Source: a virus (Duplodnaviria > Heunggongvirae > Uroviricota > Caudoviricetes). From it: a stretch of DNA of 57,499 bases. Location of the stretch: IMG/VR virus record IMGVR_UViG_2541047758_000011; one strand, given 5' to 3'. Positions 11,663-56,101 of the stretch are shown here, one piece after another; positions within the stretch are counted from its first letter, which is position 1, and each line of letters starts with the position of its first letter. The notes below the pieces were generated by a model. The model searched no databases and was not told the DNA's origin. It saw only the letters and a program-made list of their open reading frames with translations. Made by a program: the position numbers and the translations under genes.

Positions 11663-12702
11663 AGGCTGAAGCATGGCGGGTCAGCAAACTTGGTGAAATA
11701 CCTGATATGACGTTCGAGGAGGCGTGTATCAGGTGGCTCGAAGAGAAAGCACATAAAAAATCACTGGACGATGACAAAAGCCGGATCGGATTCTGGCTTC
11801 AACATTTCGCAGGAATGCAACTAAGAGACATTACTGAATCAAAAATTTATTCAGCAATGCAGAAAATGACGAACCGGCGTCATGAGGAAAACTGGAAACT
11901 CAGGGCAGAAGCATGCAGAAAAAAAGGGAAACCTGTTCCAGAATACACGCCAAAACCAGCGTCCGTTGCAACGAAGGCTACGCATCTTTCATTTATAAAG
12001 GCCCTACTAAGAGCCGCAGAGCGTGAATGGAAAATGCTGGATAAGGCACCAATTATTAAAGTGCCTCAACCAAAGAATAAACGGATCCGCTGGCTGGAGC
12101 CCCATGAAGCACAAAGGCTGATTGATGAATGTCCGGAGCCATTAAAGTCTGTTGTTGAATTTGCACTGGCAACAGGTTTAAGACGCTCGAACATCATCAA
12201 CCTTGAATGGCAACAAATAGATATGCAGCGCCGGGTGGCATGGATAAACCCGGAAGAGAGTAAATCAAACCGCGCAATCGGCGTTGCGCTGAATGATACT
12301 GCATGTCGCGTTTTGAAAAAACAAATCGGGAATCATCACCGTTGGGTATTTGTGTACAAGGAAAGCTGTACCAAACCAGACGGAACGAAAGCGCCAACAG
12401 TAAGGAAGATGCGGTATGACGCAAACACAGCCTGGAAAGCGGCGCTGAGACGAGCTGGTATTGATGATTTCAGATTTCACGACTTGAGACACACCTGGGC
12501 AAGTTGGCTGGTTCAAGCCGGAGTCCCGTTGTCAGTGTTACAGGAAATGGGTGGCTGGGAGTCTATCGAAATGGTTCGTCGATATGCTCACCTCGCGCCT
12601 AATCACCTTACCGAACACGCACGGCAAATAGACTCGATTCTGAACCCATCGGTCCCAAATTTGTCCCAGTCAAAAAATAAGGAAGGTACTAATGATGTGT
12701 AA
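11539..12702 (+). CDS. int: Tyrosine integrase (prophage A)
   Basis: 387 aa with C-terminal catalytic region ...[42 protein letters not shown]; stop 14 bp before tRNA 3' fragment. Confidence 0.9.
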
Positions 12703-12762
12703 CTTATTGATTTAAATGGTGCCGATAATAGGAGTCGAACCTACGACCTTCGCATTACGAAT
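12699..12762. repeat. 64-bp att core direct repeat (copy 1), identical to 56038-56101; includes 46-nt 3' fragment of tRNA-Thr (12717-12762)
   Basis: gtaacttattgatttaaatggtgccgataataggagtcgaacctacgaccttcgcattacgaat is present at both positions by direct comparison. Confidence 0.9.
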
Positions 12763-13091
12763 CTGTAGAACCAATCATAACTATCTGTTTTAGCAAGCAT
12801 TAACCGCATTCACCAAGCAATAGTTGATGGCACAAACAGAAAGTTGATGCATGATGTTGTCATGTGTATGTCACAAATACGGCACAACGATCTTCAAACA
12901 TGTAGCCACCCAGCATAGAAGAGCACAAATCCTTGCAATCCAGTGCAAAGCTTTGTGTACCTTAGTTTTGTCTCATAGGTAATTCTGCTTTAACTGCGAT
13001 GCAGGAATCTGTCACCAGACGCACGTCTCGTTGTTTTATGGTTTTCCGTTCATGATTAATATGTTAGCTTGTCAAAGTTTGTGTTTAAGAT

Positions 13092-13763
13092 ATGGTGATT
13101 GATGCAATGTTAAGCGTTCAGATGACTCCACAAGCAAAAGTTAGCTTCGAGGAGCAATGTTTTTTTCATGCTTCATGTCTTGTTGTTGCCCCAATAAATG
13201 TTGGAGCATTCTCCTACTTTGGCGCTAATTGTATGCTCGGCGGCTTTACGATGGGTAGATTTTGTTCAGTTGCTCCAGGAGTAAAAATTGGCCTTGGCGA
13301 GCATGAAACTGGGTATTTTTCTACGCATCCTTTTTTCTTTGGATCAAAAAATGGTTTTAAAATCCCTGATGGTATAGGAATGCAGCGCGACCTCTCTCAA
13401 CAGAAGCATGGTATACCAAGAATTGGTCATGACGTATGGATAGGTGCAAATGCGGTTATCAGGCGAGGTATAACTATTGGTACTGGCGCTGTTATTGCTG
13501 CTGGCGCTATTGTCACCAAAAATGTCGAGCCATATTCAATCGTAGGTGGCGTTTCTGCAAAACACCTAGGGTACAGATTTGATGAATCAATCATCAAAGA
13601 GTTACTGGATAGCCAATGGTGGGAATATGATTTAAGCTCATTTATTGGGATTGATACAAGGACACCGACGACTTTTTTAGAGCAGTTTAATGCTGTAAAA
13701 GATAAAAAGAAGGCATCTTATAAGAGATTTACAATTCTTCCATCCGGTGAAATTGTTGAATAG
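13092..13763 (+). CDS. Hexapeptide-repeat (left-handed beta-helix) acetyltransferase, xenobiotic/CatB-Vat-like
   Basis: 223 aa with XAT-like blocks: [25 protein letters not shown] and [43 protein letters not shown]; AT-rich gene between attL and tailspike. Confidence 0.75.
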
Positions 13764-13782
13764 CGCATCCCTGCGCTATATT

Positions 13783-16149
13783 TTAAATAAACATAAGAAT
13801 AAACATCAGAAGTTCTTCGTATCTGATGCCATACTGATAGCCAGCAGGTTTAATAATAACCTGCCTTCCTGTGTAATATTCCTCGTCGTACCACTCTCCT
13901 GTTTCATTGTTTTTAACACTCCTAATCAATACCTCTGGAGCATAAATATCATCCCATTCATCATAACACCAGAACGCATAGTTATTAGGGTCAAGACCGT
14001 ATTTTCTGAGAATATTACCTACAGTTTGTGCACCAACGCCGAAATGAATCCGAGCGCCATCACTCTTGATCTTTACTGCATCTTTAAATTTAAACCTCCA
14101 GATATTTTCCTTTATTTCAAGCGCAGCAAGACGCTCTGATTCTGTTGTTTTCTCGTCAGCCTTAATACGCAATTTAAGCTCTTCATTCGACGTGTTGATA
14201 CTGCCAGTACCAGCGTATACCTGTGACCATCGAAATGCTGATGTTCCGTTTGAGTTAACATTATCAACAGTTGGTTTTATAAGGCCAGAAAAATGAGTTT
14301 CAGGTGTATTAATATATGTATATGCACCTGCTGTACTACGAGTCCTTAACTCAAAGCTGTCTATATCAACACCAGTCCTACGAATTATAAGGAAGTTATT
14401 TCCTGCGGAACCAGTATCGGTTTGAGTGCTAACAGACAATCCGTTTCGTGTATCAATACGTATATTCTTCCCGTTCTCCAGCGAAGCAGAATTATGTAGA
14501 TACAGCGAGTTGTCAGTGTAGAGATTGTGTTTACCTACATTGCTAAATGTATAAGTATTGCTTGTGTTATCACTGTTCCTATGGAATTGCTGAAGAGTGT
14601 AGGCAGAAGATGCTCCGTATCCATCACAATGGAAATTTCTGCACAGCTGCAAATCGAATAACAATACGGTGTCAGCATTAATGCTCACATTATTAAAGCA
14701 TGTTGCAAAGTTGGCACCATACTGTGAATTGGAATCGCCAATCTGTGCGCACACATCAAGCAAACCAAAAGTTACATTGGTAAAGTTATTTGCATCACCG
14801 GCGTCAAGAACAATCCCTTTCTTAGTCCCTGAATACCCTCTGGCAGTGCCGATCTCAACTCCCTGGAATGAACACACGCGAGCACGACTAAGCTTAAGAC
14901 CAACCCATTCCAGACCATGATCGTAACCTTTTGCTGCGCGGTGAATAAACATACCATTCATGATGAGAAGGAATCTGTTATCCAGCCGTACTGGTTCAAG
15001 TTGGGCATTAATACCAACATTTGTGCATATACATTCACCATAAGCATAACGATTCGTTTCAAATATACGATCATCAGCGTCGTAAATGCCTCGTAATGCC
15101 TTGGCGGCATCAATATTAAGCAATGTAAAATATGTCTTCTGCTTAATTTCAAAAAAATTTGCAACATTATGCGTTGTGATATCACTCACACGCATTGATA
15201 AAATCCCCTCTTCTGGAGCGGTGCGAATGAATCCATCAAGGAACTGTTCATTATAACTTTTGGCTATCTGATAACATCCAACAGCATCAATGCGTTCGAT
15301 TGTGAATTGCCAACTATCACCGCAGTTAAAATTCCATTTCCAGCCGTATTTCTGTGCAAATTCATCATATTCAACATTTGCAGTCTCAGAACAGAAAGAT
15401 AAAAATCTAAATGTTGGTTTTGGCCTTAGATGGTTAAGCCCGGCACCTCTTGGGGTATATATGGCATTATCTCCATTCCCACCTTTTGTTTTAACTGTAA
15501 GGTGACTTAAACCAAATTCAATATCATATTTTGTTGGTGCAGCGAAAACAAAGCCGTCTTTTGGTGATGTGGTATTGTCAAACACAATAACCGTTTCACC
15601 CTGCCCATCACCGTACATATTTACTGGTGGTATATTAACGGGGCCAGTCAAACTATATGTTCCAGTTGGCACATATAGTTTTCCACCCTCTCCAATAGCA
15701 TTTGCTGCTGCAATAAATGCCACCGTATCATCGTTAACACCGTCACCTTTCGCCCCATAATGCTGTGGCGTAATTAACAGCATACGGTCAGAAAAAATCT
15801 CTGTCCTAAGTTGATCAGGATCGTATTTTAATACATTTGGAAAATAAAACTGCTGAGTGCCATATGCATCATATACAGCCATAGAATGGCCTTTCACAGT
15901 TACGAATTTGGCAATCTGCCCGTTATATACAGGATACCCGCCAGCGTTAATGATGATTGGCTGTGCAACAGGAACGTGAGAACCATCCTCATTCTCTACA
16001 TAAACCTGAATCTGGTTTTCAGGATTTACCGGGTCAGTGTCAATTTTACCGATATAAATTTTGCCATTGGCTACGGCTTTAAAAGAACGCGCCATAGTGA
16101 AGAGTTGCGAAGGCATACTCACTACAACATTGGCTGTAATGTCTGTCAT
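13783..16149 (-). CDS. Tailspike protein (P22 gp9-type N-terminal head-binding domain, divergent beta-helix domain, C-terminal chaperone-like region)
   Basis: N-terminus [46 protein letters not shown] matches P22 tailspike head-binding domain; [14 protein letters not shown] pectate-lyase-like motif; rest unlike P22. Confidence 0.85.
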
Positions 16150-16281
16150 TTAATTTGCTCCAGATACAATGAATCGCCGCAGCATGGCTACGGTTGGCAT
16201 TTGTTACATACCGAAACGGTACGATTGTTGATTTGTACAGTGGGTTTTACGATGCCATTCCACCCATTTGGTGAGGCATTG

Positions 16282-16539
16282 ATGATGTACAGCAAATACG
16301 ATGAGGCGCAGTTCCACTTGAGGCTTACACACGAGTTGCACGCTAAGATTAAGCAGCGTGCAAAAATGAATAACAGGTCTATCAATTCCGAAATTGTGGC
16401 TACGATGGAAGAATCACTCTCCAAACCATCACCTGTAAGCGGGTATCGTGATGAAGAAGAGAGGCTGGCCTCATTAATCTCGGAACGAGTAAAAGAAGTT
16501 GTGGCTGATATCCTTAGAAAAGAAAAAACCCGCGATTAA
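16282..16539 (+). CDS. mnt: Mnt-like ribbon-helix-helix repressor
   Basis: ...RSINSEIVATMEESLSKPSPVSGYRDEEERLA resembles P22 Mnt (..SKPSPVTGYR..); start chosen at ATG 16282 inside a longer track ORF. Confidence 0.7.
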   Translation: MMYSKYDEAQFHLRLTHELHAKIKQRAKMNNRSINSEIVATMEESLSKPSPVSGYRDEEERLASLISERVKEVVADILRKEKTRD

Positions 16540-16548
16540 GCGGGTTTA
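16522..16548. terminator. Bidirectional hairpin terminator (aacccgcgattaagcgggtt)
   Basis: Stem-loop flanked by A-run on one side and T-rich on the other, between convergent genes. Confidence 0.55.
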
Positions 16549-16553
16549 GTTGG

Positions 16554-16775
16554 TTAGTTATCAAAAAGTCCGTACGTTTCTTCTTCTTCAGGTGTAAGGG
16601 GAAGAATCTCTACTCTATCTATAGATACCTTTTCAATGTACCCATGAGGTCTACTTAAAATTAAAGCTCTCTCATGCCACAGAACTCCAAGAATGTGATA
16701 CCTTCCAGCATCGCCTTTTACCCTGGCTCTTCCTTTGATTCTTGGCGGCATAATGCCATATTTTTTCTTTGCCAT
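16554..16775 (-). CDS. Hypothetical small basic protein (73 aa)
   Basis: ORF MAKKKYGIMPPRIKGRARVKGDAGRYHILGVLWHER...; no recognised family. Confidence 0.45.
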   Translation of the reverse strand: MAKKKYGIMPPRIKGRARVKGDAGRYHILGVLWHERALILSRPHGYIEKVSIDRVEILPLTPEEEETYGLFDN

Positions 16776-16995
16776 TATGCAACATTACTCCCATGAATCA
16801 GGTGTTGTAGTGCTTTAACACCTTCCGCATTGTAGCGGAATGCTTCCACCTGTTTGCTGGAATGCGCAGATTTATCCAGGAAGAACTTCCCGTACTGCTC
16901 AGTTTTGAGGTTGTTTGCGTTAGCAATGCGACCAATCTTGTTGGCCGTTACTCCAAGCTGCTCTGCAACCTCCCCTGCTGAGTAGTAATGCTCTT
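16775..16995 (-). pseudogene. C-terminal gene fragment truncated by IS911 (possible regulatory/antirepressor remnant)
   Basis: Reading frame runs out of IS911 left end; only ~73 codons are non-IS sequence. Confidence 0.4.
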
Positions 16996-17067
16996 TGAAG
17001 TGGTTTACTGAATTTGGCCACCTGAACAGAGGTGATATGCTCACCTCAGAACAACACAGGTGCCATA

Positions 17068-18215
<1,148 letters not shown>

Positions 18216-18245
18216 CTCGGTGGCCAGTTTTTGTTGACCACTTCA

Positions 18246-18756
18246 ATTCTATTGCCGGAAGAGGTATTGCATTAAAACCAACGAGCGGGTTGATTATACT
18301 TGCTGCCGCTGTCTGCTTTGCCTCAGGCGCAAGATTTGGCATCAGATCGAACAGATTGGTAACAGCTTCAACCGTCATTTTCAATGTTCGCGCTTGACGA
18401 TACTCAACAAGTCCACTCGCTGATTTACCGCTTTTAATGTGCGCTTCTTGCATACTTTCAAGTTGGTCTACCAGTGAGCGGCGAACGGCTTTTGACTCGC
18501 GAGCGGCAACTCGCAATGCTTGCTTGATTGACATCTCAATGATAACCATCGAAGTTTTGTTCGCTTTTTGCACTACACTTTTTGTGTAGTGCTCTCCATC
18601 CAATTCATCTTCAATTTTCTCGATGAATTTGTTATTACGAACCTCCGGCTCACCGCACTGTCTACGAGCCTGATTTACCATCTCAAGCAGGCGCTGGCTG
18701 TCAATGGTTTTATCCGTGACAACGGATCCGATGTTTGCTACATTCTTAAAAGTCAT
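18246..18756 (-). pseudogene. N-terminal fragment of Rha/antirepressor-like regulatory gene interrupted by IS911
   Basis: ORF MTFKNVANIGSVVTDKTIDSQRLLEMVNQARRQCGEPEVRNNKFIEKI... runs into IS911 right end; family call is tentative. Confidence 0.4.
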
Positions 18757-18843
18757 TAGGCATTCCTTATGTGGTAGTAAGGGTGTGACATAGGCCGCCA
18801 GCAGCACACTGGCGGTTTTCTTTTGCGCTGTCCTGTGCACCAA

Positions 18844-19482
18844 TCAATGAATCCATTCCTCGCCGCTAAGTTTTGCCAGCATTGGCTGAGCGTTCTTTAC
18901 GACAAAATTGTTGGTATCAAGATTCTTCATTTCACGAAGAAGTGATTTCTTGGTTTCTTCTGACATATAGCGAGTCTCATATGCAATATCGTATATTCTT
19001 CCTGAAAGCTCAGAACCAATTTGCTTCATTCCTGGGTAGATGTGTTTGCACATTTGTTGACTCTTCTCCATCCACAATTGTAAGTAGCAGAGATTAACCA
19101 GTTCTTCGTCAGTAAACTGTTTTGCAATCGGTGAGCATTCTGCCTGCCGATCCAAAATATCCAGCACCCAGCGGCGGAACTCTTTGGCCTTGGGCGTAGA
19201 AGCAAACATCGCCACCAAGTGAGCGCCTCGGAGCGAGTAAACTCTGACCGATTTGTTACGTAAGCTATTGTTTATTCCGTTGACCTTCATATTGAGGGTC
19301 AATGACATTGAGTCGGAAAATTCGTCAGCATTACGGGCATAAATTTGGCTGATGGCATCAGTTTTTTTATAGCCGAGAGCCTTAGCTAGTTCGGTGGAGG
19401 TGAACCAGATAGACCCGCCCTCTGTTACAGGGTTAAAAGTGAATCCTTGGAAGTTATAATCTGATTTTGCTACAATATTCAT
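18844..19482 (-). CDS. ant: Antirepressor (Bro-N domain) Ant-like
   Basis: MNIVAKSDYNFQGFTFNPVTEGGSIWFTSTELAKALGYKKTDAISQ... Bro-N/antirepressor-like N-domain, downstream of arc. Confidence 0.7.
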   Translation of the reverse strand: MNIVAKSDYNFQGFTFNPVTEGGSIWFTSTELAKALGYKKTDAISQIYARNADEFSDSMSLTLNMKVNGINNSLRNKSVRVYSLRGAHLVAMFASTPKAKEFRRWVLDILDRQAECSPIAKQFTDEELVNLCYLQLWMEKSQQMCKHIYPGMKQIGSELSGRIYDIAYETRYMSEETKKSLLREMKNLDTNNFVVKNAQPMLAKLSGEEWIH

Positions 19483-19555
19483 GTTAGTTTCCTTGCATAC
19501 GGTTACTGACATAGAGGCCCGGTTTGTGTTCGCGCACTGCCGGGCTTCACTATTT

Positions 19556-19729
19556 TTATTGGATGACAACATCGCCCTTTGCCTCAAGTTTCATCAATAA
19601 CTCCATTCGATAAGCTATCTCTGCCTGAATTGACCTATGGCATCTTTTTGCTGATTCGCGGATATGTGAATCAACCTTTTCTGTAAAACGAACCTGACGC
19701 GGCTTGATGGAAGATATCTTTTCAGTCAT
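19556..19729 (-). CDS. arc: Arc-like ribbon-helix-helix repressor (57 aa)
   Basis: Manual translation MTEKISSIKPRQVRFTEKVDSHIRESAKRCHRSIQAEIAYRMELLMKLEAKGD resembles P22 Arc; below ORF track threshold. Confidence 0.65.
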   Translation of the reverse strand: MTEKISSIKPRQVRFTEKVDSHIRESAKRCHRSIQAEIAYRMELLMKLEAKGDVVIQ

Positions 19730-19828
19730 TATGCACTCCTGTTTTTGAAAAACTCATAATCTCACTTTTTGCAGTTTGATTATTCACTCACACTCAGTAT
19801 GAGTCAATGAATTTTTTATGGTGAACTA

Positions 19829-20470
19829 ATGAATTTTGACGATCAATTCCCATCAAGAGTATCTCTGGCAAGACAGTCCAGGGGTATGACGCAGGCGCAG
19901 TTGTCAAAATTAGCTGGTGTTGTTCAACGTCAAATAGCTGCATACGAGGGTGGTGAGGCTAAACCACGGCTTCGTGTATTGCAGGCATTAGCCAACGCAT
20001 TAGGTACTACGGCTGAGTGGTTAGCTCTAGGTGAAGGTCAGGGTCCAGGAACAAAAAACGTCATGCCTGACGTTCTGGTAAAGCAAATACCAATTCTCAA
20101 ACTAGATGAAGTTATGCATTACCTAAACACAGGTGAACATTCATCGTCTAGATTTCATCCGGCAATATACAATGTTGGTGACTCTGCATTTGCATTGACT
20201 ATTGAAGGTGAAGCTATGACTACAAGTTCAGGTATTAGCTTTCCCAGAGGATCGGTTGTCACGTTCAGCCCTCTAGTAAAAGCTAAAAGCAAAGATTATG
20301 TAATAGCATCATTGGATAAAGAGCAAATATTGAGCTTCAAACAGGTTTACATTGGTGAAATAGAGACAAACCTAGTATCCCTAAACCCAATGTATCCTAA
20401 TATTCTTGTTAGAAATGAAGATGTTAGTATTTTGGCAACCGCAGTTTACCTTGAAATCCCGTTGCTTTGA
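19829..20470 (+). CDS. XRE-HTH / LexA-cI-like S24 domain protein with nucleophile Ser replaced by Ala (predicted non-cleavable)
   Basis: N-terminal HTH (MTQAQLSKLAGVVQRQIAAYEGGEAKP); C-domain aligns with lambda cI CTD but has EGEAM where cI has EGNSM; Lys of dyad retained (SFKQV); AT-rich. Confidence 0.75.
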   Translation: MNFDDQFPSRVSLARQSRGMTQAQLSKLAGVVQRQIAAYEGGEAKPRLRVLQALANALGTTAEWLALGEGQGPGTKNVMPDVLVKQIPILKLDEVMHYLNTGEHSSSRFHPAIYNVGDSAFALTIEGEAMTTSSGISFPRGSVVTFSPLVKAKSKDYVIASLDKEQILSFKQVYIGEIETNLVSLNPMYPNILVRNEDVSILATAVYLEIPLL

Positions 20471-46556: not shown

Positions 46557-46588
46557 AATGACTCCTGTGGATTGATCCAGTAATTCCC

Positions 46589-46885: not shown

Positions 46886-47000
46886 TTGTTAATTTTCCTA
46901 TATTGATATTGAGTTATAGCGGCACACCCAATGGATTTGCCGCTGATGTTTGCTCACCCGGTTAGAGGTGAAAGGCCAGAACTGTTAAAGAGCAATTTGC

Positions 47001-47186: not shown

Positions 47187-47195
47187 AGACTCGCT

Positions 47196-47266
47196 CCGAA
47201 ATTAAAGAACACTTAAATTATCCACCAAAGGAATCTTAAGTCAAGTTTATTTAAGATGTCTTAACT
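47196..47266. promoter_or_regulatory. OR operator region with P22-type operator palindromes (pR/pRM)
   Basis: Three AnTnAAG...CTTnAnT-like sites (aattaaagaacacttaaatt, aatcttaagtcaagttta, atttaagatgtcttaact) between cro and c2. Confidence 0.7.
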
Positions 47267-47917
47267 ATGAATACACAACTGATGGGTGAGCGTATTCGCG
47301 CTCGCAGAAAAGAACTCAAGATTAGGCAGGCTTCCCTTGGCAAGATGGTTGGCGTGTCTAATGTTGCTATTTCCCAATGGGAGCGATCTGAAACTGAGCC
47401 CAATGGCGAAAACCTATTGGCCTTAGCCAAGGCTTTGCAGTGCTCCCCTGATTACCTGTTGAAAGGAGAGGATAGTCTTTCAAACATTGCCTATCACAGC
47501 AGGCATGATCCAAGAGGTTCGTATCCTCTAATTAGTTGGGTAAGCGCAGGATGTTGGATGGAAGCTGTAGAGCCATATCATAGGCGTGCAATAGATAACT
47601 GGTACGACACAACGGTAGATTGTTCTGAAGACTCTTTTTGGCTCGACGTTAAAGGCGACTCAATGACTGCCCCGGCAGGACTGAGTATTCCTGAGGGGAT
47701 GATTATTCTCGTCGACCCAGAAGTCGAACCACGTAATGGAAAGCTGGTAGTCGCCAAACTTGAAGGAGAAAACGAGGCGACATTCAAAAAGTTAGTTATT
47801 GATGCCGGTAGAAAATTCCTGAAACCACTCAATCCACAATACCCAATGATTGAAATCAATGGGAACTGTAAAATCATTGGCGTTGTCGTTGATGCCAAGC
47901 TAGCAAACCTTCCTTAA
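47267..47917 (+). CDS. c2: C2 repressor (P22-type, S24 autopeptidase)
   Basis: 216 aa MNTQLMGERIRARRKELKIRQASLGKMVGVSNVAISQWERSETEPNGENLLAL... with GDSM Ser and Lys dyad. Confidence 0.92.
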   Translation: MNTQLMGERIRARRKELKIRQASLGKMVGVSNVAISQWERSETEPNGENLLALAKALQCSPDYLLKGEDSLSNIAYHSRHDPRGSYPLISWVSAGCWMEAVEPYHRRAIDNWYDTTVDCSEDSFWLDVKGDSMTAPAGLSIPEGMIILVDPEVEPRNGKLVVAKLEGENEATFKKLVIDAGRKFLKPLNPQYPMIEINGNCKIIGVVVDAKLANLP

Positions 47918-47938
47918 GGGGCTTTCGCCCCTTTTTTA
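47917..47938 (+). terminator. Rho-independent terminator after c2
   Basis: aaggggctttcgcccctt + T-run. Confidence 0.7.
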
Positions 47939-47989
47939 TTTCCCGTTAAAAATCAAAGACAAACTAAATTCACGTCCATAAAATTAAGT

Positions 47990-48045
47990 TTTCTTCAAAA
48001 ATGCACTTGACCAATAAATTAAGAAGTCTTAAATTTAAGCCATCA
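47990..48045 (+). promoter_or_regulatory. pL/OL region (TTGACC -35, operator-like ttaagaagtcttaaatt)
   Basis: cacttgaccaataaattaagaagtcttaaatttaag upstream of nut-like hairpin. Confidence 0.55.
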
Positions 48046-48084
48046 GCAGGACGCTGGAAGCCAAACGGAACAGATTGGCAGGCT

Positions 48085-48125
48085 CTTTAACATCGACGGA
48101 CTCTCAACCTAACCGTTGAGACCAG
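48085..48125 (+). promoter_or_regulatory. nutL-like site (boxA-like ctctttaa, boxB-like hairpin ctcaacctaaccgttgag)
   Basis: Short hairpin preceded by boxA-like motif upstream of N-like gene. Confidence 0.45.
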
Positions 48126-48231
48126 AACTTGAGTGGTTTTGGGGATGGCGCGAATTGCAGCTGCAAGACAGCGATCGAGAAGATAAGCACCTCGACGCGT
48201 CATGCGCCAAAGCCACTTAAAGGAGACCATC

Positions 48232-48537
48232 ATGGTAACCATTGTCTGGAAAGAATCCAAAGGTACGGCAAAAAGCCGCTACAAAGCTCGCAGAGCAGAA
48301 CTTATTGCCGAGCGACGCAGTAATGAAGCACTGGCGCGAAAAATTGCGCTAAAGCTCTCTGGTTGCGTCAGAGCAGACAAAGCAGCATCACTAGGAAGCC
48401 TTTGCTGCAAGAAGAAAGAAGAAGTCGTTCGAAAAAATAGAAGTATTTATTACAAAGATTCAAACCCATTAGGAAACAAAATACATGCAGTCCAAAAAAT
48501 AAAATTGTACAGTAAACTACCGTACGGTGCTTATTGA
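48232..48537 (+). CDS. N-like antitermination protein with arginine-rich motif (P22 gp24 analogue)
   Basis: N-terminal ..KSRYKARRAELIAERR.. ARM; first gene after pL/nut; start chosen at ATG 48232 after AAGGAG. Confidence 0.55.
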   Translation: MVTIVWKESKGTAKSRYKARRAELIAERRSNEALARKIALKLSGCVRADKAASLGSLCCKKKEEVVRKNRSIYYKDSNPLGNKIHAVQKIKLYSKLPYGAY

Positions 48538-48878
48538 GTATGCTTATGGTGAAAAAGACTATTTATGTTAATCCTGACCGCGGACAAAACAGAAAAGTAT
48601 CTGATAGAGGTCTTACATCTCGAGACAGGAGGAGAATAGCGAGATGGGAAAAAAGGATAGCATATGCATTAAAAAACGGTGTAACACCTGGATTTAATGC
48701 TATAGATGACGGTCCTGAATATAAGATTAATGAAGAACCAATGGACAAAGTTGACAAAGCATTAGCAACACCATTTCCTCGCGATGTCGAAAAAATTGAA
48801 GATGAAAAATATGAGGATGTAATGCACAGAGTTGTTAATCACGCTCACCAACGAAATCCAAATAAAAAATGGTCATAG
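48534..48878 (+). CDS. Hypothetical early protein (114 aa)
   Basis: ORF overlapping N-like stop; followed by terminator. Confidence 0.5.
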   Translation: MSMLMVKKTIYVNPDRGQNRKVSDRGLTSRDRRRIARWEKRIAYALKNGVTPGFNAIDDGPEYKINEEPMDKVDKALATPFPRDVEKIEDEKYEDVMHRVVNHAHQRNPNKKWS

Positions 48879-48899
48879 CCCACTTCGGTGGGTTTTTTA
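48878..48899 (+). terminator. Rho-independent terminator (cccacttcggtggg + T7)
   Basis: Seen directly. Confidence 0.75.
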
Positions 48900-48930
48900 T
48901 TGTCTGAACAAACCTAATTTACTACCGCAA

Positions 48931-49007
48931 GCCACGCAGTGAAATGGGTGTGACTTGTGTTGGTCGCCAGAAGCAACGCGGAAAATCAATTCCAGCTTAT
49001 TACGATT
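48931..49007 (+). pseudogene. Remnant of a lambda-type N gene 3' end (homologous to 6411-6487 of prophage A)
   Basis: ...MGVTCVGRQKQRGKSIPAYYD* with no N-terminal part; flanking DNA also matches prophage A. Confidence 0.6.
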
Positions 49008-49102
49008 GAGGTGAGCCATGCTCAAGAAAGTCAAACGCCGACTTTACAACAAGGCTGCCTGACGGTGGCATTTATTTTTGGCATAAACAACATGGGGTAA
49101 AA

Positions 49103-49429
49103 ATGAAAGTTTTAATGGTTTATGAAAATGTTCCAGAGTCGACTGAAATCTATATTTTTGATGCCAATGAAGATGAAGTTAACGATTTGAAATTGTCTCA
49201 CGGCAATTACACAAATGCTAATTGTGATGAAAGTATCGAAAAAGCACTATCACGTGTTCTTGTCAGAATTAGTGATCCAGAACATTGTGATGATGATTGG
49301 CTTTCTTATTGTGGAGCGGTAAAAACTGATGCAGGAAAATGGAGTAAAAGTAAAGTTGATAACTCAACTCCAATCATTATGAAAGATAGCGATATTGAAA
49401 TGGTAATAATAACCGGAATGATTATGTAG
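49103..49429 (+). CDS. Hypothetical protein (108 aa)
   Basis: ORF in AT-rich segment. Confidence 0.45.
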   Translation: MKVLMVYENVPESTEIYIFDANEDEVNDLKLSHGNYTNANCDESIEKALSRVLVRISDPEHCDDDWLSYCGAVKTDAGKWSKSKVDNSTPIIMKDSDIEMVIITGMIM

Positions 49430-49534
49430 GCTGCGAATAAGCACTGTGTATTCATTCCAACGAGTGAATACACGGAGCAATGTCGCTCGTAACTAAACAG
49501 GAGCCGACTTGTTCTGATTATTGGAAATCTTCTT

Positions 49535-49562
49535 TGCCCTCCAGTGTGAGGGCAATTTTTTT
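49535..49562 (+). terminator. Rho-independent terminator (gccctccagtgtgagggc + T-run), second copy of the 7095-7120 element, preceded by the same 9-bp inverted repeat
   Basis: Near-identical to prophage A block 6996-7120. Confidence 0.65.
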
Positions 49563-49574
49563 GACGGAGGATAT

Positions 49575-49886
49575 ATGAAATTACGTGTCTGGCATATCCC
49601 GCAAGTACCTATGAAGCCGTTCATTGTAGAAGTGGCAAGTGTTGAAGAGGGTGTTCGCCTGATGGATGCACTGGCTGATTATGATGCCTTTCAGTATGAC
49701 AACAACATCAAGCCTGACTACTGCAATGCTAACGGCCTTGAGATGTGGGATGAGAGCCTTACTGATGAAGATTTATCAGAGATGGGGCTTACGGATCGCT
49801 GGGTAGATTGGTACAGCGAATGCCAATGTTACGACGACCCACGTAAATATATCGAAAGCCTGAAAGAAGAAACCTCAGCAGCCTGA
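49575..49886 (+). CDS. Hypothetical early protein (103 aa), ea10-position analogue
   Basis: ATG after GGAGG; MKLRVWHIPQVPMKPFIVEVASVEEGVRLMDALADYDAF... Confidence 0.55.
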   Translation: MKLRVWHIPQVPMKPFIVEVASVEEGVRLMDALADYDAFQYDNNIKPDYCNANGLEMWDESLTDEDLSEMGLTDRWVDWYSECQCYDDPRKYIESLKEETSAA

Positions 49887-49921
49887 GCGCGGATTTGACG
49901 CATACAAATTAAGGAGGATAT

Positions 49922-50890
49922 ATGAGTGAAGTAACAGATTTAGTTGTTATTGAAAAAGCAAATGCAATGACTGTATTTCAGTCTGCCGACCAGATTGAAG
50001 AAATTCTCCAAAAGGTTGAACGTGAAGTTATGTCCTTTGTGCCTGATATCACAACGGCAAAGGGCAGAAAGGAGATCGCTTCTCTGGCGTATAAAGTTGC
50101 GCAGACGAAAACATATCTCGATGGTCTTGGCAAAGACCTTGTTGCTGAACTGAAGGAAATTCCAAAGCTAATTGATGCCAACCGCAAGACAGTGCGTGAT
50201 CGACTTGATGAGCTGAAAGCCAAGGCACGCCAGCCTCTTACTGATTATGAGGATGAACAGGCACGGATTAAAGCCGAAGAAGAAGCTAAGGCAGCAGCTG
50301 AAGCTCTCGCAAAGCAAATTGAGTCTGACCATGAAATAGCGATTTTGATGGATCGCGAATTTGACCGCCAAAGAGAAGAGGCAAGACTCAAAGCGGAGCA
50401 GGAAAAGCGAGAGCATGAAGAACGCTTAAAAAGAGAAGCTGAAGAGAAAGCCAGAGCAGAAGCCGAAGCAAAGGCAAAAGCAGAAATTGAAGCAGCAGCA
50501 AGACGAGAAGCAGAGGCTAAGGCCGCAGCGGAACGTGCAGAGCGTGAACGCATTGAAGCCGAGCAACGAGCACAGCGCGAAGCAAAAGAGGCAGCAGAAC
50601 GAGCTGAAAAAGAAAAGCAGGCAGCAATTGAAGCAGAACGCAGAAAAGCACAGGAGGAGGCTGAGCGAATCCGTCGCGAGGCTGAAGCAAAAGAGCAAGC
50701 CAGAATCGCAGAAGAAAAAAGAATCAAGGACGAAGAAGAGCACAGAGCAAAGGATAAAGCTCACCGGAAAGAAGTAAATAACAAAATACTTGCTGACCTT
50801 ATCAAGGTTGGCGCATCAGAAGATGTTGCTAAAAATATCATAACAGCCATCGTAAAAGGCGAAGTATTCGCAACAAAAATAACCTACTAA
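49922..50890 (+). CDS. Hypothetical protein with long E/K/A/R-rich charged helical region (322 aa)
   Basis: Residues ~120-270 are almost entirely E, A, K, R (..EAEEKARAEAEAKAKAEIEAAARREAEAKAAAERAERERIEAEQRAQREAKEAAERAEKEK..). Confidence 0.6.
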   Translation: MSEVTDLVVIEKANAMTVFQSADQIEEILQKVEREVMSFVPDITTAKGRKEIASLAYKVAQTKTYLDGLGKDLVAELKEIPKLIDANRKTVRDRLDELKAKARQPLTDYEDEQARIKAEEEAKAAAEALAKQIESDHEIAILMDREFDRQREEARLKAEQEKREHEERLKREAEEKARAEAEAKAKAEIEAAARREAEAKAAAERAERERIEAEQRAQREAKEAAERAEKEKQAAIEAERRKAQEEAERIRREAEAKEQARIAEEKRIKDEEEHRAKDKAHRKEVNNKILADLIKVGASEDVAKNIITAIVKGEVFATKITY

Positions 50891-50914
50891 TAAAACCAAC
50901 ATAAGGAACCACCC

Positions 50915-51061
50915 ATGATTTACGCAATCGCGGGAGGCGCTCGCATGGGTGCCTTCCAATTAAATGAATCTTTACTTGAACGAATCACCCGTAAATTACG
51001 TGACGGATGGAAACGACTCATCGACGTACTTAATCAGCCAGGAGTTCCAAAAAATGGATAA
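50915..51061 (+). CDS. CIII-like protein (48 aa)
   Basis: [48 protein letters not shown], parallel to lambda cIII core. Confidence 0.7.
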   Translation: MIYAIAGGARMGAFQLNESLLERITRKLRDGWKRLIDVLNQPGVPKNG

Positions 51062-51167
51062 AACACTTATGGCTATTCAGACTAAATTCACTATCGCCAC
51101 TTTTATTGGCGATGAAAAGATGTTTCGTGAGGCCGTCGAAGCCTACAGAAAATGGAGGTCTAAATGA
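51054..51167 (+). CDS. Kil-like protein (37 aa)
   Basis: [37 protein letters not shown], parallel to lambda Kil N-terminus. Confidence 0.6.
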   Translation: MDKTLMAIQTKFTIATFIGDEKMFREAVEAYRKWRSK

Positions 51168-51352
51168 TTCCGGTAGAGCTGGCGAAAACTCCAGAGTTAA
51201 GTCGATTAAAAAGAGAATATCACATTGCTGAGGCTCGTTACTGGCGTAAAGCGGGAGATAAATCAAAGAAACAACTTTGTTTATGGCAAGCACAAAGAGA
51301 GCGCATGAATGAGCGCGAATTTCTTTCCTCCCCATCCGAATTACCATTCTGA
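51164..51352 (+). CDS. Hypothetical protein (62 aa)
   Basis: ORF. Confidence 0.4.
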   Translation: MIPVELAKTPELSRLKREYHIAEARYWRKAGDKSKKQLCLWQAQRERMNEREFLSSPSELPF

Positions 51353-51360
51353 GGTGAATT

Positions 51361-52068
51361 ATGGATTTGAATAAATTCGATGAGCCATTCAGCCCTGAAG
51401 ATATCGAATGGCGAATACAGCAAAGCGGTAAAACACGCGATGGCAAGGTGTGGGCTATGGTGCTGGCTTATGTCACGAACCGGGCAATCATGAAACGCCT
51501 GGACGATGTTTGCGGCAAAGCAGGATGGCGCAATGAATACCGCGATATTCCCAACAACGGCGGCGTTGAATGCGGCATATCAATAAAGATTGATTCCGAA
51601 TGGGTAACCAAATGGGATGCTGCTGAAAACACGCAGGTAGAAGCCGTCAAAGGTGGTCGTTCCGGTGCAATGAAGCGCGCTGCCGTTCAGTGGGGAATCG
51701 GTCGGTATCTGTATAACCTTGAGGAAGGTTTCGCACAAACATCTCTCGATAAAAAGCAGGGGTGGCACAGGGCAAAACTGAAGGATGGAACAGGATTTTA
51801 CTGGCTCCCTCCATCGCTTCCGGGATGGGCAATCCCAGCATCAGATAACAAACCATCACCAGAAAATATCAACCAGAAATCTCCATCGGTTGACTGCGAA
51901 CAAATCCTGAAAGACTTCAGCGATTATGCGTCAACAGAAACTGACAAGAAAAAACTCATCGAGCGTTATCAGCATGACTGGCAATTAATGGCTGGCAATG
52001 AGGATGCGCAGGCTAAATGCGTTCAGGTAATGAACATCAGAGTTAACGAACTAAAACAGGCGGCATAA
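51361..52068 (+). CDS. erf: Erf-like ssDNA annealing protein (divergent N-domain, P22 Erf-like C-terminus)
   Basis: C-terminal ..DFSDYASTETDKKKLIERYQHDWQLMAGNEDAQAKCVQVMNIRVNELKQAA matches P22 Erf C-terminus; N-part (..AAVQWGIGRYLY..) Rad52-like, differs from P22 Erf. Confidence 0.75.
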   Translation: MDLNKFDEPFSPEDIEWRIQQSGKTRDGKVWAMVLAYVTNRAIMKRLDDVCGKAGWRNEYRDIPNNGGVECGISIKIDSEWVTKWDAAENTQVEAVKGGRSGAMKRAAVQWGIGRYLYNLEEGFAQTSLDKKQGWHRAKLKDGTGFYWLPPSLPGWAIPASDNKPSPENINQKSPSVDCEQILKDFSDYASTETDKKKLIERYQHDWQLMAGNEDAQAKCVQVMNIRVNELKQAA

Positions 52069-52584
52069 ATGGCAAGCAGAGGCGTAAATAAGGTGATCAT
52101 TATTGGTCGCCTTGGGCATGATCCAGAAATCAGATATTCACCATCAGGAACGGCATTTGCAAACCTTACAGTTGCTACGTCAGAACAATGGCGTGATAAG
52201 CAAACTGGAGAGCAAAAGGAGCAGACGGAGTGGCACCGTGTGGTAATGAGCGGGAAACTGGCAGAAGTTGCCAGCGAATATCTGCGAAAAGGCTCTGAGG
52301 TTTATCTTGAAGGCAAATTGCGGACAAGAAAATGGCAGGATCAAAGCGGACAGGATCGGTTCACTACCGAAGTTATCGTGGGCGTTGGTGGAACCATGCA
52401 AATGCTTGGTGGCAAGCAAGGAAGCAATGAACAGTCTTCACCTCAGCGAAATAACGGCCAGCAACAAAGACAGCAATCTCAGCAGCAGGGGAATCACAGC
52501 GAACCACCTATGGATTTTGACGACGATATACCCTTTGCGCCAGTAACTCTCCCCTTCCCTCGTCACGCTATTCACGCAATTTAA
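52069..52584 (+). CDS. ssb: Single-stranded DNA-binding protein
   Basis: OB-fold N-domain (..[54 protein letters not shown]..), Gln/Gly-rich linker, acidic tail DFDDDIPF. Confidence 0.9.
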
Positions 52585-52597
52585 TCAGGAGAAAATC

Positions 52598-52891
52598 ATG
52601 CCAGCGCCTCTGTATGGTGCGGATGACGCGCGCCGCTGTTCCGGCAATTCCGTATCGGAGGTGCTGGATAAATTCAGAAAAAACTACGACCTGATAATGT
52701 CGCTACCGCAGGAAACGAAAGAGGAAAAGGAATTTCGCCATTGTATATGGCTTGCAGAGAAAGAAGAACGAGAGCGAATTTACCAGACATCAATCCGACC
52801 ATTCCGCAAAGCCACATATACCCACTTCCCTGAAATTGACCCGCGCCTGCGTAATTACCGCTCACGCTATGGCGCTATCAGTAATGACTGA
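52598..52891 (+). CDS. Hypothetical protein (97 aa)
   Basis: ORF. Confidence 0.45.
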
Positions 52892-52900
52892 GGAATTTAC

Positions 52901-53071
52901 CATGAGAGGACTTGCATACAATCCCGGCATTCTTCCGGCAGAAATGATTATTCGCCAACGCGTAAAGCCAATGCCATCGAGAGAGGAATTGCTTAAGAGA
53001 AATTCTTTTCCGTCAGTGAATCAAAACAAATATCTGAATGCGATGTGGCGGAGTGGGAGGACTAACAAATG
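52901..53071 (+). CDS. Hypothetical protein (56 aa)
   Basis: Manual [44 protein letters not shown]... Confidence 0.35.
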
Positions 53072-53845
53072 ACCACTATTACCAAAGAGCGACTGCTGAC
53101 AATCAAGCAGTGGCGCGAAACATACGGACCTGGTAGCAACGTTGTACTGCCAGCAGAAGAAGCGGAAGAACTGGCACGAATTGCACTGGCATCACTGGGA
53201 GCAGAACCAGTTGCTTATATTTTCAAACATCCGGCCGGGAAATTATTCTGGGCTTTAACGGATGAAAGCAATAAAGAGCAAGCGGACGTTATTCCTGTTT
53301 ATGCCGCCCCTCCAGTGCCAGTAGTACCTGAAGAAAAACCAATGCCTAACCCTCTTAAAATGTACGCGGTCGATGCTGTTGCCGCTATTGCAGAGGTGAG
53401 AGGCTGGAACGCCTGCCGCGCCGCCATGCTTCAGGCCGAACCTGTAAGTAATAGTGATGAGTTACCGCTGGACTATCTGCAAGGACACAAAGACGGCCTG
53501 GAGTGGGCTGCACAATTGGCAGAAGCCAATCATCCGCAAACAGGTGACTGGTTGTACGACGACCCAATCGATCTTGCCAGGGCGATTCGCAAAGGTCCTG
53601 ATATGCCTACTGTTCAGGCTGGCAACTATCCGGTAACTCCGGATGGTTGGATAAGCTGTAGTGAGCGAATGCCGGATACCAAAACAGCCGTTCTTGTTGC
53701 CGTGGAGTTTGACAGGAAAGGTGACTGGCGAATGAAATGGGCGACTTACATCCCGGGGCATCCTGACGCTAATGATGGGTGGATAATTCCTGGTGCGTCG
53801 TGGAAACCGTCACACTGGATGCCGCTACCAGAGCCTCCACTTTGA
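53069..53845 (+). CDS. DUF551-like C-terminal domain protein
   Basis: C-terminal ..[65 protein letters not shown].. resembles DUF551. Confidence 0.55.
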
Positions 53846-53941
53846 AAGCGAAGCTTATACATATCTTTTACATCAGCAATCTATTGTTAATCTCCAATCA
53901 ATGTTACGTTGTCATCTCTCTCATGCTTTGGAGGTAGTGAT

Positions 53942-54121
53942 ATGTCTTGTCCAAAATGCGGTTCTGGAAATATTGCAAAAGAAAAAACAATGCGTGGATG
54001 GTCTGATGATTATGTGTGCTGCGATTGCGGATACAACGACTCTAAAGACGCATTTGGAGAGCGTGGTAAAAACGAGTTTGTCAAAATTAATAAAGAACGC
54101 GAAGGCAACGAAAAAAGCTAA
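53942..54121 (+). CDS. Small zinc-ribbon protein (CxxC...CxxC)
   Basis: MSCPKCGSGNIAKEKTMRGWSDDYVCCDCGYNDSKDAF...; RBS GAGGT upstream. Confidence 0.45.
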   Translation: MSCPKCGSGNIAKEKTMRGWSDDYVCCDCGYNDSKDAFGERGKNEFVKINKEREGNEKS

Positions 54122-54186
54122 TTTATTTATTCATATATGAAAACAATGTAACCAATATTCGAATTGAAGAACTGAAAGAACACCAA

Positions 54187-54209
54187 GCCGCCTGATGGCG
54201 GTTTTTTTA
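54187..54209 (+). terminator. Rho-independent terminator (gccgcctgatggcgg + T7)
   Basis: Seen directly. Confidence 0.7.
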
Positions 54210-54222
54210 TTGGAGACAAGAA

Positions 54223-54567
54223 ATGTCAGATTTGGCTATGAAGGTTTTGAAATGGCAATCAACTGGCGATGTCGGCATCAGTAGCGCAACTCTTGCCTCA
54301 ATCGCATGTGGACTGAAAAAGAATATCTATGGTCATCACTTCGGCGCTCCCCATGACGTAGCAGACTTTCGGCGATGCGTTGCACTTGTTGAGCAGATTC
54401 CAGAAATCAGAGATTCATTCGACAAGGTTGCAAAGCGCGTTCCGGCATTCAAAGGAATCCTCAACGAATGGGATTCACTCGTTGCTCTGTTGAAGTCTGA
54501 AATGAAGATACACGGAAACAAAGCACCAGAGACTTACAGAAGAATCAGCGAGCTACGCAAGGACTAA
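54223..54567 (+). CDS. Hypothetical protein (114 aa)
   Basis: ORF upstream of xis. Confidence 0.5.
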   Translation: MSDLAMKVLKWQSTGDVGISSATLASIACGLKKNIYGHHFGAPHDVADFRRCVALVEQIPEIRDSFDKVAKRVPAFKGILNEWDSLVALLKSEMKIHGNKAPETYRRISELRKD

Positions 54568-54656
54568 CCACAGCCTCACACTCGATGAGGCCTGTTCATT
54601 TCTCAAGATATCCAGACCTACCGCAATAATACCAACTCAATAAATGGAGATTCCAA

Positions 54657-55004
54657 GTGGAAGAAGAAATCTTCACTCGTGAAGAGGCAGCATCGTATCT
54701 GAAGGTAGACAAAGGCACTATCACGCAGTGGATACGAAGTGGACGACTTCAGGCCGCAAAGATAAATCCAGATAAACCTAAAAGCCCATATCGCATTTGC
54801 AAGTCAGACTGCATTGCGGCGCTTAAGTCTGTAAGACACAATAGCGCGGTGAATGCGGTTGATGTGCAGGAGGTTAAAGCATGTCAATCAAACTACGCGG
54901 TGGCACGTGGCACTGTGATTTCGTCGCGCCAGATGGATCAAGAGTTAGACGCTCTCTTGAAACATCGGACAAAAGGCAAGCGCAAGAACTTCACGATCGT
55001 CTGA
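54657..55004 (+). CDS. xis: Excisionase-like protein (Xis), GTG start, overlapping int by 124 nt
   Basis: ..EEIFTREEAASYLKVDKGTITQWIRSGRLQAAKINPDKPKSPYRICKSDCIAAL.. same architecture as prophage A xis. Confidence 0.55.
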   Translation: MEEEIFTREEAASYLKVDKGTITQWIRSGRLQAAKINPDKPKSPYRICKSDCIAALKSVRHNSAVNAVDVQEVKACQSNYAVARGTVISSRQMDQELDALLKHRTKGKRKNFTIV

Positions 55005-56041
55005 AAGCAGAAGCGTGGAGAGTAAAAAATCTCGGGGAATCACCGAAAAAGCTATTCAAGGAAGCCTGCATACGGTGGCTTCGTGAGAAATCGGATAAGA
55101 AGTCCATTGATGATGACAAGAGCATTATATCGTTCTGGATGTTGCACTTCAGAGAAACCATTCTCTCAGACATAACAACAGAAAAAATAATGGAGGCGGT
55201 AGACGGGATGGAAAACCGCCGCCATCGCCTGAACTGGGAAATGAGCCGGGACAGGTGTTTGCGGCTTGGCAAGCCAGTGCCGGAGTATAAACCAAAGCTG
55301 GCAAGCAAAGGAACGAAGACGCGGCATCTGGCAATACTTCGCGCTATTCTCAATATGGCTGTTGAATGGGGATGGCTTGACAGGGCGCCCAAAATATCAA
55401 CACCACGCGTTAAGAATGGACGAATCAGATGGCTTACAGAGGAGGAATCGAAGCGCCTGTTTGCAGAAATTGCTCCTCATTTCTTCCCTGTGGTCATGTT
55501 TGCAATCACGACAGGCCTTCGCCGTTCCAACGTTACAGACCTTGAGTGGTCACAGGTCGATCTGGATAAGAAAATGGCATGGATGCACCCTGATGAAACA
55601 AAAGCTGGCAATGCGATCGGAGTTCCTCTTAACGAAACCGCATGCCAGATATTAAGAAAACAGCAGGGTCTCCATAAGAGATGGGTGTTTGTCCACACCA
55701 AACCTGCCTACCGAAGCGACGGAACAAAAACAGCAGCGGTAAGGAAGATGAGAACCGACAGCAACAAGGCATGGAAGGGAGCGTTAAAGCGGGCAGGCAT
55801 TAGCAACTTCCGCTTCCATGACCTGAGGCATACTTGGGCAAGCTGGCTGGTTCAGTCCGGTGTCTCTCTTCTTGCACTTAAAGAGATGGGAGGATGGGAA
55901 ACTCTAGAAATGGTTCAAAGATACGCCCACCTTTCAGCCGGGCATCTCACCGAGCACGCGAGCAAAATCGATGCGATTATAAGTCGCAATGGCACAAATA
56001 CGGCACAAGAGGAGAACGTGGTTTACTTAAATGCGAGGTAA
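54881..56041 (+). CDS. int: Tyrosine integrase (prophage B)
   Basis: 386 aa, C-terminal ..[42 protein letters not shown]; stop 14 bp before tRNA-Thr 3' end. Confidence 0.9.
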   Translation: MSIKLRGGTWHCDFVAPDGSRVRRSLETSDKRQAQELHDRLKAEAWRVKNLGESPKKLFKEACIRWLREKSDKKSIDDDKSIISFWMLHFRETILSDITTEKIMEAVDGMENRRHRLNWEMSRDRCLRLGKPVPEYKPKLASKGTKTRHLAILRAILNMAVEWGWLDRAPKISTPRVKNGRIRWLTEEESKRLFAEIAPHFFPVVMFAITTGLRRSNVTDLEWSQVDLDKKMAWMHPDETKAGNAIGVPLNETACQILRKQQGLHKRWVFVHTKPAYRSDGTKTAAVRKMRTDSNKAWKGALKRAGISNFRFHDLRHTWASWLVQSGVSLLALKEMGGWETLEMVQRYAHLSAGHLTEHASKIDAIISRNGTNTAQEENVVYLNAR

Positions 56042-56101
56042 CTTATTGATTTAAATGGTGCCGATAATAGGAGTCGAACCTACGACCTTCGCATTACGAA
56101 T
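56038..56101. repeat. 64-bp att core direct repeat (copy 2), spanning int stop, spacer and 3' 46 nt of tRNA-Thr
   Basis: Identical to 12699-12762 by direct comparison. Confidence 0.9.

Follow-up and report, generated by a model that had tools for sequence, protein, structure and literature searches.

Among insertion sites for islands and phages, the tRNA gene thrW is an acknowledged hot spot (PMC7545054). Sun et al. (2011) constructed tandem lysogens of Shigella flexneri, serotype 1d, in which SfX and then SfI had integrated at thrW, with SfI entering at the thrW-proximal attachment (att) site, attL, of the SfX lysogen (PMC3306764). Here we analyse 57,499 nucleotides of DNA, the IMG/VR virus record IMGVR_UViG_2541047758_000011 (hereafter the window), which ends on its right in thrW and the chromosomal gene proA. 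Two distinct elements lie head to tail at thrW in this DNA, and a core derived from the tRNA bounds each of them; we refer to the left-hand element as A and to the right-hand one, which adjoins thrW, as B. Tandem prophages at one bacterial attachment site (attB) have reportedly been described in other bacteria.

We propose, with a probability of about 0.85, that this locus, the thrW hot spot of E. coli beside proBA, has taken up several integrative elements one after another; most of the resulting stack lies in the window. There are several direct copies of the core, the only complete tRNA of the array (56056-56131) lies at its chromosome-proximal end, and both A and B have their own integrase gene beside a core. 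Moving away from the tRNA, the order is thrW, B, an att copy, the remnant of A, an att copy outside the window, and an island resembling CP4-6. Because a third core and the island lie beyond A, the array has at least three elements and at least three att copies. The original prediction, made from the window alone, was a tandem integration of two phages at thrW. The two distinct elements and the shared core stand; what changes is that only the core is shared, that A is a remnant, that B has been damaged by insertion sequences (IS), and that a third element lies beyond.

Core copies, integrases and arm sites

Positions 12699-12762 and 56038-56101 form a perfect 64-bp direct repeat whose identity stops sharply at both edges. 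There is no further copy on either strand of the 57.5-kb window, and a chance match of 64 nucleotides within 57.5 kb is effectively impossible. ARAGORN places thrW, a tRNA-Thr(CGT) gene with the same sequence as thrW in genomes with an empty site, at 56056-56131 on the minus strand, so the repeat includes the 3' 46 nt of the gene (56056-56101). The rest of the proximal copy consists of one base of the last sense codon of the integrase gene, its TAA stop (56039-56041) and a 14-bp spacer (56042-56055). This composition had been predicted and proved exact on re-alignment; as was also predicted, one integrase gene ends at each copy, and both full-length open reading frames (ORFs) stop at a TAA within the repeat. 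The chromosomal flank holds proA (56246-57499, minus strand; Pfam Aldedh); five E. coli genomes have a gene annotated as proA at the corresponding position.

The copies differ in what surrounds them. The proximal copy (56038-56101) lies between the integrase-proximal arm of B, to the left, and the 5' DNA of bacterial thrW, to the right. The middle copy (12699-12762) is likewise preceded by the integrase-proximal arm of A but followed, to the right, by the distal arm of B. A third copy was found on the source scaffold, KE699876.1 (GCA_000457655.1), which is 100% identical to the window over 10,685 shared nt. There, the 46-nt core recurs exactly, at a distance of 5121 nt from the left end of the window; with the spacer, 63 of 64 positions match the repeat. 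To its right is the distal arm of A, about 95% identical to that of phage phi458. Going leftward from the window, the scaffold carries an inverted alternative fibre/assembly segment (with a gap), a truncated Pin-type invertase, three small cargo genes and then the third att copy, next to which no integrase remnant was found. Further left is the CP4-6-like island, with a 198-aa gene, a 543-aa gene, AlpA, a DUF3987 protein and IS1 (positions 15807-20429 of the scaffold locus, L016); in complete genomes this island exceeds 20 kb and has YfjI/YagK-type genes. By analogy with K-12, in which CP4-6 ends, on its far side, in a partial tRNA copy by intF, yagP' and paoD, a fourth att copy is likely to be present in the source genome.

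All att copies are identical to the bacterial tRNA over its last 46 nucleotides and diverge from it directly beyond; the block of identity starts at tRNA nucleotide 31 and includes the entire anticodon loop. Because identity begins at nucleotide 31, strand exchange probably takes place in or near the anticodon loop. Crossover in the anticodon loop is general for this group of integrases. A single phi458 prophage has the phage-type spacer GTAACTTATTGATTTAAA at its integrase-proximal copy and the bacterial-type spacer GTAACTCTTTGATTTTAA at its distal copy, which places the crossover within the tRNA segment.

The integrases belong to different lineages. int1 (11539-12702, plus strand) encodes a P22/SfI-type tyrosine integrase of 387 aa (Pfam Phage_integrase, E = 9.5e-48), 99.5% identical to SfI Int and 89.7% to P22 Int, in which the motifs TGLRRSN, HDLRHT and RYAHL are found. 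Overlapping its start is xis1 (11312-11662, plus strand), which encodes a P22-type excisionase of 116 aa from the P22-equivalent start (phrog_2907, E = 7e-52; 88.8% identical to P22 Xis). The product of int2 (54881-56041, plus strand) is an SfX/HK446-type tyrosine integrase of 386 aa (Phage_integrase, E = 9e-35), with 100% identity to the Int proteins of HK446 and HK542, 97% to that of SfX and 54% to that of P22; the start of int2 is overlapped by xis2 (54657-55004, plus strand), for an excisionase of 115 aa (phrog_2907, E = 1.2e-52). Both integrases therefore have a full Phage_integrase domain, lie on the plus strand and are accompanied by their own xis. The two proteins had been described as sharing their catalytic C-terminal region. 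They are indeed homologous there, at 60% identity over residues 181-360, but the homology runs end to end (55-56%) and drops to about 30% over the last 27 or so residues. Xis1 and Xis2 are 41% identical. P22-type recombination genes thus sit on the lambdoid element A, and an SfX-type module on the P22-like element B.

Short repeats in the arms, conserved in position, are putative arm-type integrase sites (offsets are measured from the repeat boundaries). Within the 3' end of int1 there are two candidate Int1 sites, GTCCCA, 11 bp apart (12652-12668, plus strand), at -47 and -36 from the repeat; within the 3' end of int2 there are two candidate Int2 sites, GGCACAA, also 11 bp apart (55991-56008, plus strand) and at the same offsets. 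The distal arm of B has three more candidate Int2 sites at 12829-12887 on the plus strand (GGCACAA at 12829, GTCACAA at 12870 and GGCACAA at 12881). The P22/SfI (Int1) type of attachment site, seen in P22, SfI, phi458 and the source, has GTCCCA at -47 and -36 before the repeat and, after the core, GTCCCA at +55 and either GTCCCA or GTCTCA at +109 and at +120; the position of the GTCCCA motif is conserved in four phages. The SfX (Int2) type, seen in phage mEp043, in the genomes GF43 and WP8-S18-CRE-02 and in B, has GGCACAA at -47 and -36, and after the core GGCACAA at +67, GTCACAA at +108 and GGCACAA at +119. The integrase-proximal pair is identical in mEp043, GF43 and WP8-S18-CRE-02, and the distal-arm sites are kept in mEp043 and GF43. 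GGCACAA occurs nine times on the two strands of the window, and four of these fall in the arms. With Int1-type sites on its left and Int2-type sites on its right, the middle copy is a hybrid. The single att specificity that had been proposed for both phages thus applies to the core, which is common to both, and not to the arm motifs, Int and Xis, all of which differ.

Two observations touch on where these sites came from. Beyond its GGCACAA sites, the distal arm of B at 12910-12975 (aaatccttgcaa...agttttGTCTCA) resembles the distal arm of the P22/SfI type, and the SfX-type phage attachment site (attP) may have arisen when new arm sites were inserted between the core and an older P22-type arm. 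In addition, the flank of the empty E. coli thrW site, between yagP' and the tRNA, contains a 51-nt fossil of an SfX-type int 3' end. The fossil, seen in two empty sites and in the flank of phi458, keeps both GGCACAA motifs and has a 1-nt deletion (window 55987-56055 compared with positions 2951-3018 of one empty-site locus, L003). From this comparison the present-day E. coli thrW attB looks like an old attL scar, which may be why identity between attB and attP extends beyond the tRNA.

How the array may have formed and come apart

Each phage attP has the 3' 46 nt of thrW and an 18-bp trailer directly after int. We postulate that, on integration, thrW would be rebuilt from the phage DNA beside int, and the old 3' part would be displaced to the far end of the element. 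A later phage that recognises the same core could enter a resident's copy of it, and the site left between the two would have arms from two phages. On this model the island would have arrived first, A next and B last, at the thrW-proximal site, with the IS911-like elements striking B afterwards. We favour this order because SfI took the thrW-proximal site in the experiment of Sun et al. and because the distal element is the more decayed one in three of four natural arrays. In the source, it is the distal elements that appear to be the older ones: phage genes are absent from the island, and some 20 kb is missing from A. The distal element is likewise the more degraded one in GF43, which has a 204-bp fragment of int1 beyond a full B-like prophage, and in WP8-S18-CRE-02, where a degraded, IS-ridden P22-like prophage is distal and an SfV-like myovirus prophage, with a complete series of tail and head genes in the stretch compared, is proximal.

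The same junctions can be found elsewhere. Of 5426 complete E. coli genomes, 48 have the hybrid junction (int1 end, core, distal arm of B) at a coverage of at least 80%, and GF43 matches a 421-bp hybrid junction at 99.5%. A synthetic query for the reverse junction (int2 end, core, distal arm of A) matches at most 36 of the 5426 at the same coverage; this is an upper bound, because a lone A-type prophage at the fossil flank would cover about 79% of the query. Among the 12 reverse-junction matches listed, all have 100% coverage and overlap an annotated integrase. No complete E. coli genome has the full junction of the window (int1, att, acetyltransferase, tailspike) at this coverage. Relatives of A and of B also occur at thrW without the other: phi458 is a single prophage with a yagP' flank, in many genomes an int1 3' end lies directly on thrW, and GF43 provides a record for the B type. 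Empty sites, in two E. coli genomes, have the order paoCD-yagP'-thrW-proAB. The attP of mEp043 is annotated as being of the thrW/CP4-6 type.

Several points weigh against our reading or parts of it. The structure itself does not record the order of arrival: had B entered thrW first and A later gone into the partial tRNA site at the distal end of B, followed by a large deletion in A, the final map would be the same. Strain 2452 shows that proximal elements can be old and that the gradient of decay is not universal, since its proximal B-type element has been cut down to int and a tailspike fragment. We nevertheless consider this opposite history somewhat unlikely, given that in the sole experimental case the second phage took the thrW-proximal site (PMC3306764) and that three natural arrays decay distally. 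The source is a draft scaffold with a gap of 1716 N ending 2 nt before the start of the window, and the first of the two IS911-like copies in B lacks a perfect target duplication (CTT versus ATT). The arm-type sites were assigned from motif conservation, and the competence of A and B for excision was judged from their sequences.

The array might instead have been inherited or imported as a block, for instance through homologous recombination that brought in the proBA-thrW-pao region of another strain, or an older B-type remnant might have been rebuilt by homologous recombination with a newly arriving P22-like phage. In line with this, the hybrid junction is common to 48 complete genomes, in some of which B is merely a remnant, and the parts conserved among them are the ends of B (int2 and the 214-bp distal arm). 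Such a history is compatible with a site-specific origin of the junctions and would only move that origin to an earlier time; with the full junction of the window in none of the complete genomes, we regard it as unlikely. It is far less probable still that the arrangement is an artefact of assembling or scaffolding a short-read draft. The N gap just to the left, and two identical 1250-bp IS copies that short reads could not span, would lend themselves to such an error. The window, however, has zero N bases, its 64-bp repeat is shorter than a typical read, and the hybrid junction recurs in the 48 complete genomes, GF43 included in the comparison at nearly full identity. Gene order between the IS copies is canonical, and the second copy has a clean target duplication and leaves a restored gene when removed. 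Successive integration thus remains our preferred account of the array.

If the arm sites are as assigned, the two prophages should be released separately. Int2 and Xis2, acting on the thrW and middle copies, should plausibly release B alone, and Int1 and Xis1, acting on the middle and third copies, should plausibly release A alone. None of the four int and xis genes is truncated, and each has a near-identical counterpart in phages that have been isolated. A and B might also be one functional poly-lysogenic unit that leaves as a single A+B circle by way of the outer att copies, all copies having an identical core of 63-64 bp and the integrases being of the same family. Lambda-type excision, however, needs cognate arm sites on both partners. 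The outer sites would pair an Int2-type arm (GGCACAA, integrase-proximal in B) with an Int1-type arm (GTCCCA, distal in A), and the two systems have diverged to 55% identity in Int and 41% in Xis, so that joint excision through a mixed-arm complex would be inefficient. By analogy with lambda we consider it unlikely, and a functional A+B unit improbable.

Neither prophage is expected to give viable phage unaided, because virion and lysis genes are missing from A, and in B the primase-helicase gene is split and the genome oversized. The early regions of A (2870-11519) and B (45945-54864) have ten patches of similarity in common, 31-191 nt long and 73-98% identical, which lie in the same order and orientation and 42.1-43.3 kb apart; one family has a weaker third copy, at 62%. 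These patches could serve as substrates for a RecA-mediated deletion of about 43 kb, which would fuse the prophages into a chimera. A retains int, xis, its repressor, O, P and an origin. With the hybrid middle site and the patches, B or a superinfecting related phage might rescue or mobilise this defective remnant, which could recombine into a new chimeric phage or be excised, replicated and packaged by the headful. One could go further and see functional design, beyond a mere consequence of common descent, in a shared core with arms that do not cross-react, which may let unrelated phages stack in one tRNA and yet be released separately. Likewise, the fossil int2-type arms at the empty site might cause SfX-type integrases to treat attB as an attL, which would influence the site at which incoming phages integrate. 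Design, rescue of A and biased insertion taken together form a speculative reading that we doubt.

Gene content and condition of A and B

Positions 1-12698 hold the right-hand 12.7 kb of A. From the left come tfa (257-685, tail-fibre assembly), a tail-fibre gene for 216 aa (687-1337), ren (1428-1742), P (1739-2440) and O (2437-3336), then the cII and cro region, cI (4073-4768), an ORF of 348 aa (4794-5840), N, ral to exo, a dam-like gene, xis and int. The closest records are phi458, with 99.1% identity over 83% of window positions 1-12762, and SfI, with 97.9% over 70%. Homology to lambda and phi458 ends at a deletion junction, 1468/1469, inside the 3' end of ren, and a tail-fibre gene follows. 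The tail-fibre, tfa and invertase module is of the SfI/SfV-like myovirus type, and the same module ends complete SfI/SfV-like prophages next to thrW elsewhere. No nin, Q, lysis, head, tail or baseplate genes of A were found between the ren junction and the third att copy. With ren fused to the tail-fibre module and the late genes gone, A is a deletion remnant of an SfI-like prophage, with about 18 kb left of about 38 kb and about 20 kb lost.

The label "lambda-like" given to A fits its early region only. cII-O-P-ren is 98.6% identical to lambda, ral-exo 98% and the C-terminal half of cI 93.6%. The late region is absent, Int and Xis are of the P22/SfI type, and the fibres are of the SfI/SfV type. 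Lambda immunity is ruled out: the operators, cro and the N-terminal half of cI have no match in lambda. The ORF at 4794-5840 (plus strand; phrog_6191) lies between cI and N, at the position of rexAB in lambda, and is also present in phi458. It has no Pfam or PADLOC match, and moron genes gave only generic helix-turn-helix (HTH) matches in PADLOC; we regard the ORF as a candidate moron with a role in exclusion or defence. Another assembly has a 7.2-kb contig that matches window positions 1-6054 but differs by a small indel in cI, and it is therefore not the source. On the scaffold, the 1716-N gap (L016 10688-12403) interrupts the Pin-invertible tail-fibre segment of A; the inverted repeats of this segment are the probable reason.

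B spans 43,275 bp (12763-56037) and has the canonical gene order of P22: tailspike, ejection, head, terminase, lysis, Q, nin, replication, immunity, recombination, xis, int. Its tailspike (788 aa; 13783-16149, minus strand) has the P22 head-binding domain (Pfam Head_binding, E = 8.6e-66) and a pectate-lyase-like domain, and it also matches the S74 chaperone domain weakly. The source gene table has the labels P22_gp7, Inj_translocase, Phage_P22_gp16 and DUF2824 for B. The ejection, head, portal and terminase genes are 93-96% identical to those of CUS-3, Kapi1, Sf101 and HK620 over 40-50% of the region, and the region from lysis to int is 97.9% identical to mEp043 over 54% of its length. The head-binding tailspike, the ejection genes and the gene order bear out the description of the second phage as P22-like, which does not extend to its integrase, of the SfX type and not the P22 type. 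Between the distal att arm and the tailspike lies a moron for a hexapeptide-repeat (CatB-related) O-acetyltransferase (223 aa; 13092-13763, plus strand), at the position where CUS-3, Sf6 and gtr phages hold genes for surface-polysaccharide modification.

Two copies of an IS911-like element of the IS3 family, each 1250 bp, have entered B. The copies are 100% identical, inverted and 25 kb apart. Copy 1 (16996-18245, plus strand) interrupts a gene for 242 aa downstream of an ant-like gene; in another strain this gene is intact and free of the IS. Copy 2 (43410-44659, minus strand), flanked by a 3-bp ATG target duplication, lies within a primase-helicase gene (42316-45449, minus strand) and separates its Toprim half (44660-45449) from its helicase half (42316-43409). 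The replication gene is split by the IS itself, since excising copy 2 and one target duplication in silico restores a 626-aa primase-helicase ORF, the length of mEp043 gp55. With this gene split and the other IS in the 242-aa gene, the lytic gene set of B is not intact. A genome of 43.3 kb is near or over the headful of P22-like capsids; without both IS copies B would measure 40,769 bp. The IS pair could invert the 25-kb late region by homologous recombination. Gene order indicates that it has not, and an inversion between the copies is ruled out, gene order and strand being canonical and the target duplications of copy 2 matching.

B has a few further features. Genes for tRNA-Thr(UGU) (38523-38598) and tRNA-Asn(GUU) (38604-38678) lie on the minus strand downstream of Q and before the holin gene, and a tRNA pair between Q and holin is likewise found in phage 21, SfI and the GF43 prophage. 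Besides a cI-like gene at 47267-47917, there is a second LexA-like repressor gene (213 aa, HTH_3 and Peptidase_S24; 19829-20470, plus strand) in the immI region. It is flanked by gene 16 and the ant-like gene and occupies the place of mnt and arc in P22.

Comparison with described elements at thrW

The locus offers a worked example of the layered build-up of prophages, in which newcomers rebuild the tRNA and older elements are pushed outward and decay. Two integrase lineages, the P22/SfI type and the SfX type, use the same thrW core with different arms, and this leads to testable predictions of independent excision. The array is also a warning for annotation: an att repeat and an intact integrase do not imply an inducible phage.

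A is most similar to phi458 and SfI, whose int, xis and early genes it matches; those genomes are complete (44.9 and 38.4 kb), whereas A is without about 20 kb of late genes. With P22, which uses thrW in Salmonella, A shares Int (89.7%), Xis (88.8%), the 46-nt core and the positions of GTCCCA in both arms. Here, however, the module sits on an SfI-like remnant and not on the P22-like prophage, and the spacer differs at 4 of 18 positions. The structural genes of B resemble those of CUS-3, Sf101, Kapi1 and HK620, and mEp043 and HK446 are its counterparts for the early genes, int and the att module. B differs from these P22-like coliphages in its mosaic pattern, its two IS911-like insertions, and a distinct 788-aa tailspike with the acetyltransferase. 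The hot spot itself is that of CP4-6 in E. coli K-12 (thrW...ptwF), with thrW and a partial tRNA copy by yagP' and paoD as its bounds, and the distal island here has YfjI, AlpA and DUF3987-type genes as CP4-6 does. CP4-6, in contrast, has its own integrase, IntF, at the distal end, and K-12 has no P22/SfX-type prophage stacked in front of it.

The closest parallel is the pair of SfX and SfI lysogens in S. flexneri. The target tRNA, the 46-bp core, the pair of integrase types and the head-to-tail arrangement with an att copy in between are all the same. The order is reversed here, so that the element with the SfX-type Int adjoins thrW, and the genome that bears this Int is that of a P22-like podovirus and has no gtr genes. 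In the present array both elements have suffered damage, and a third island lies beyond. The arrangement is thus of a known kind that has been reproduced experimentally, and the locus described here is another instance of it that calls for no new mechanism.

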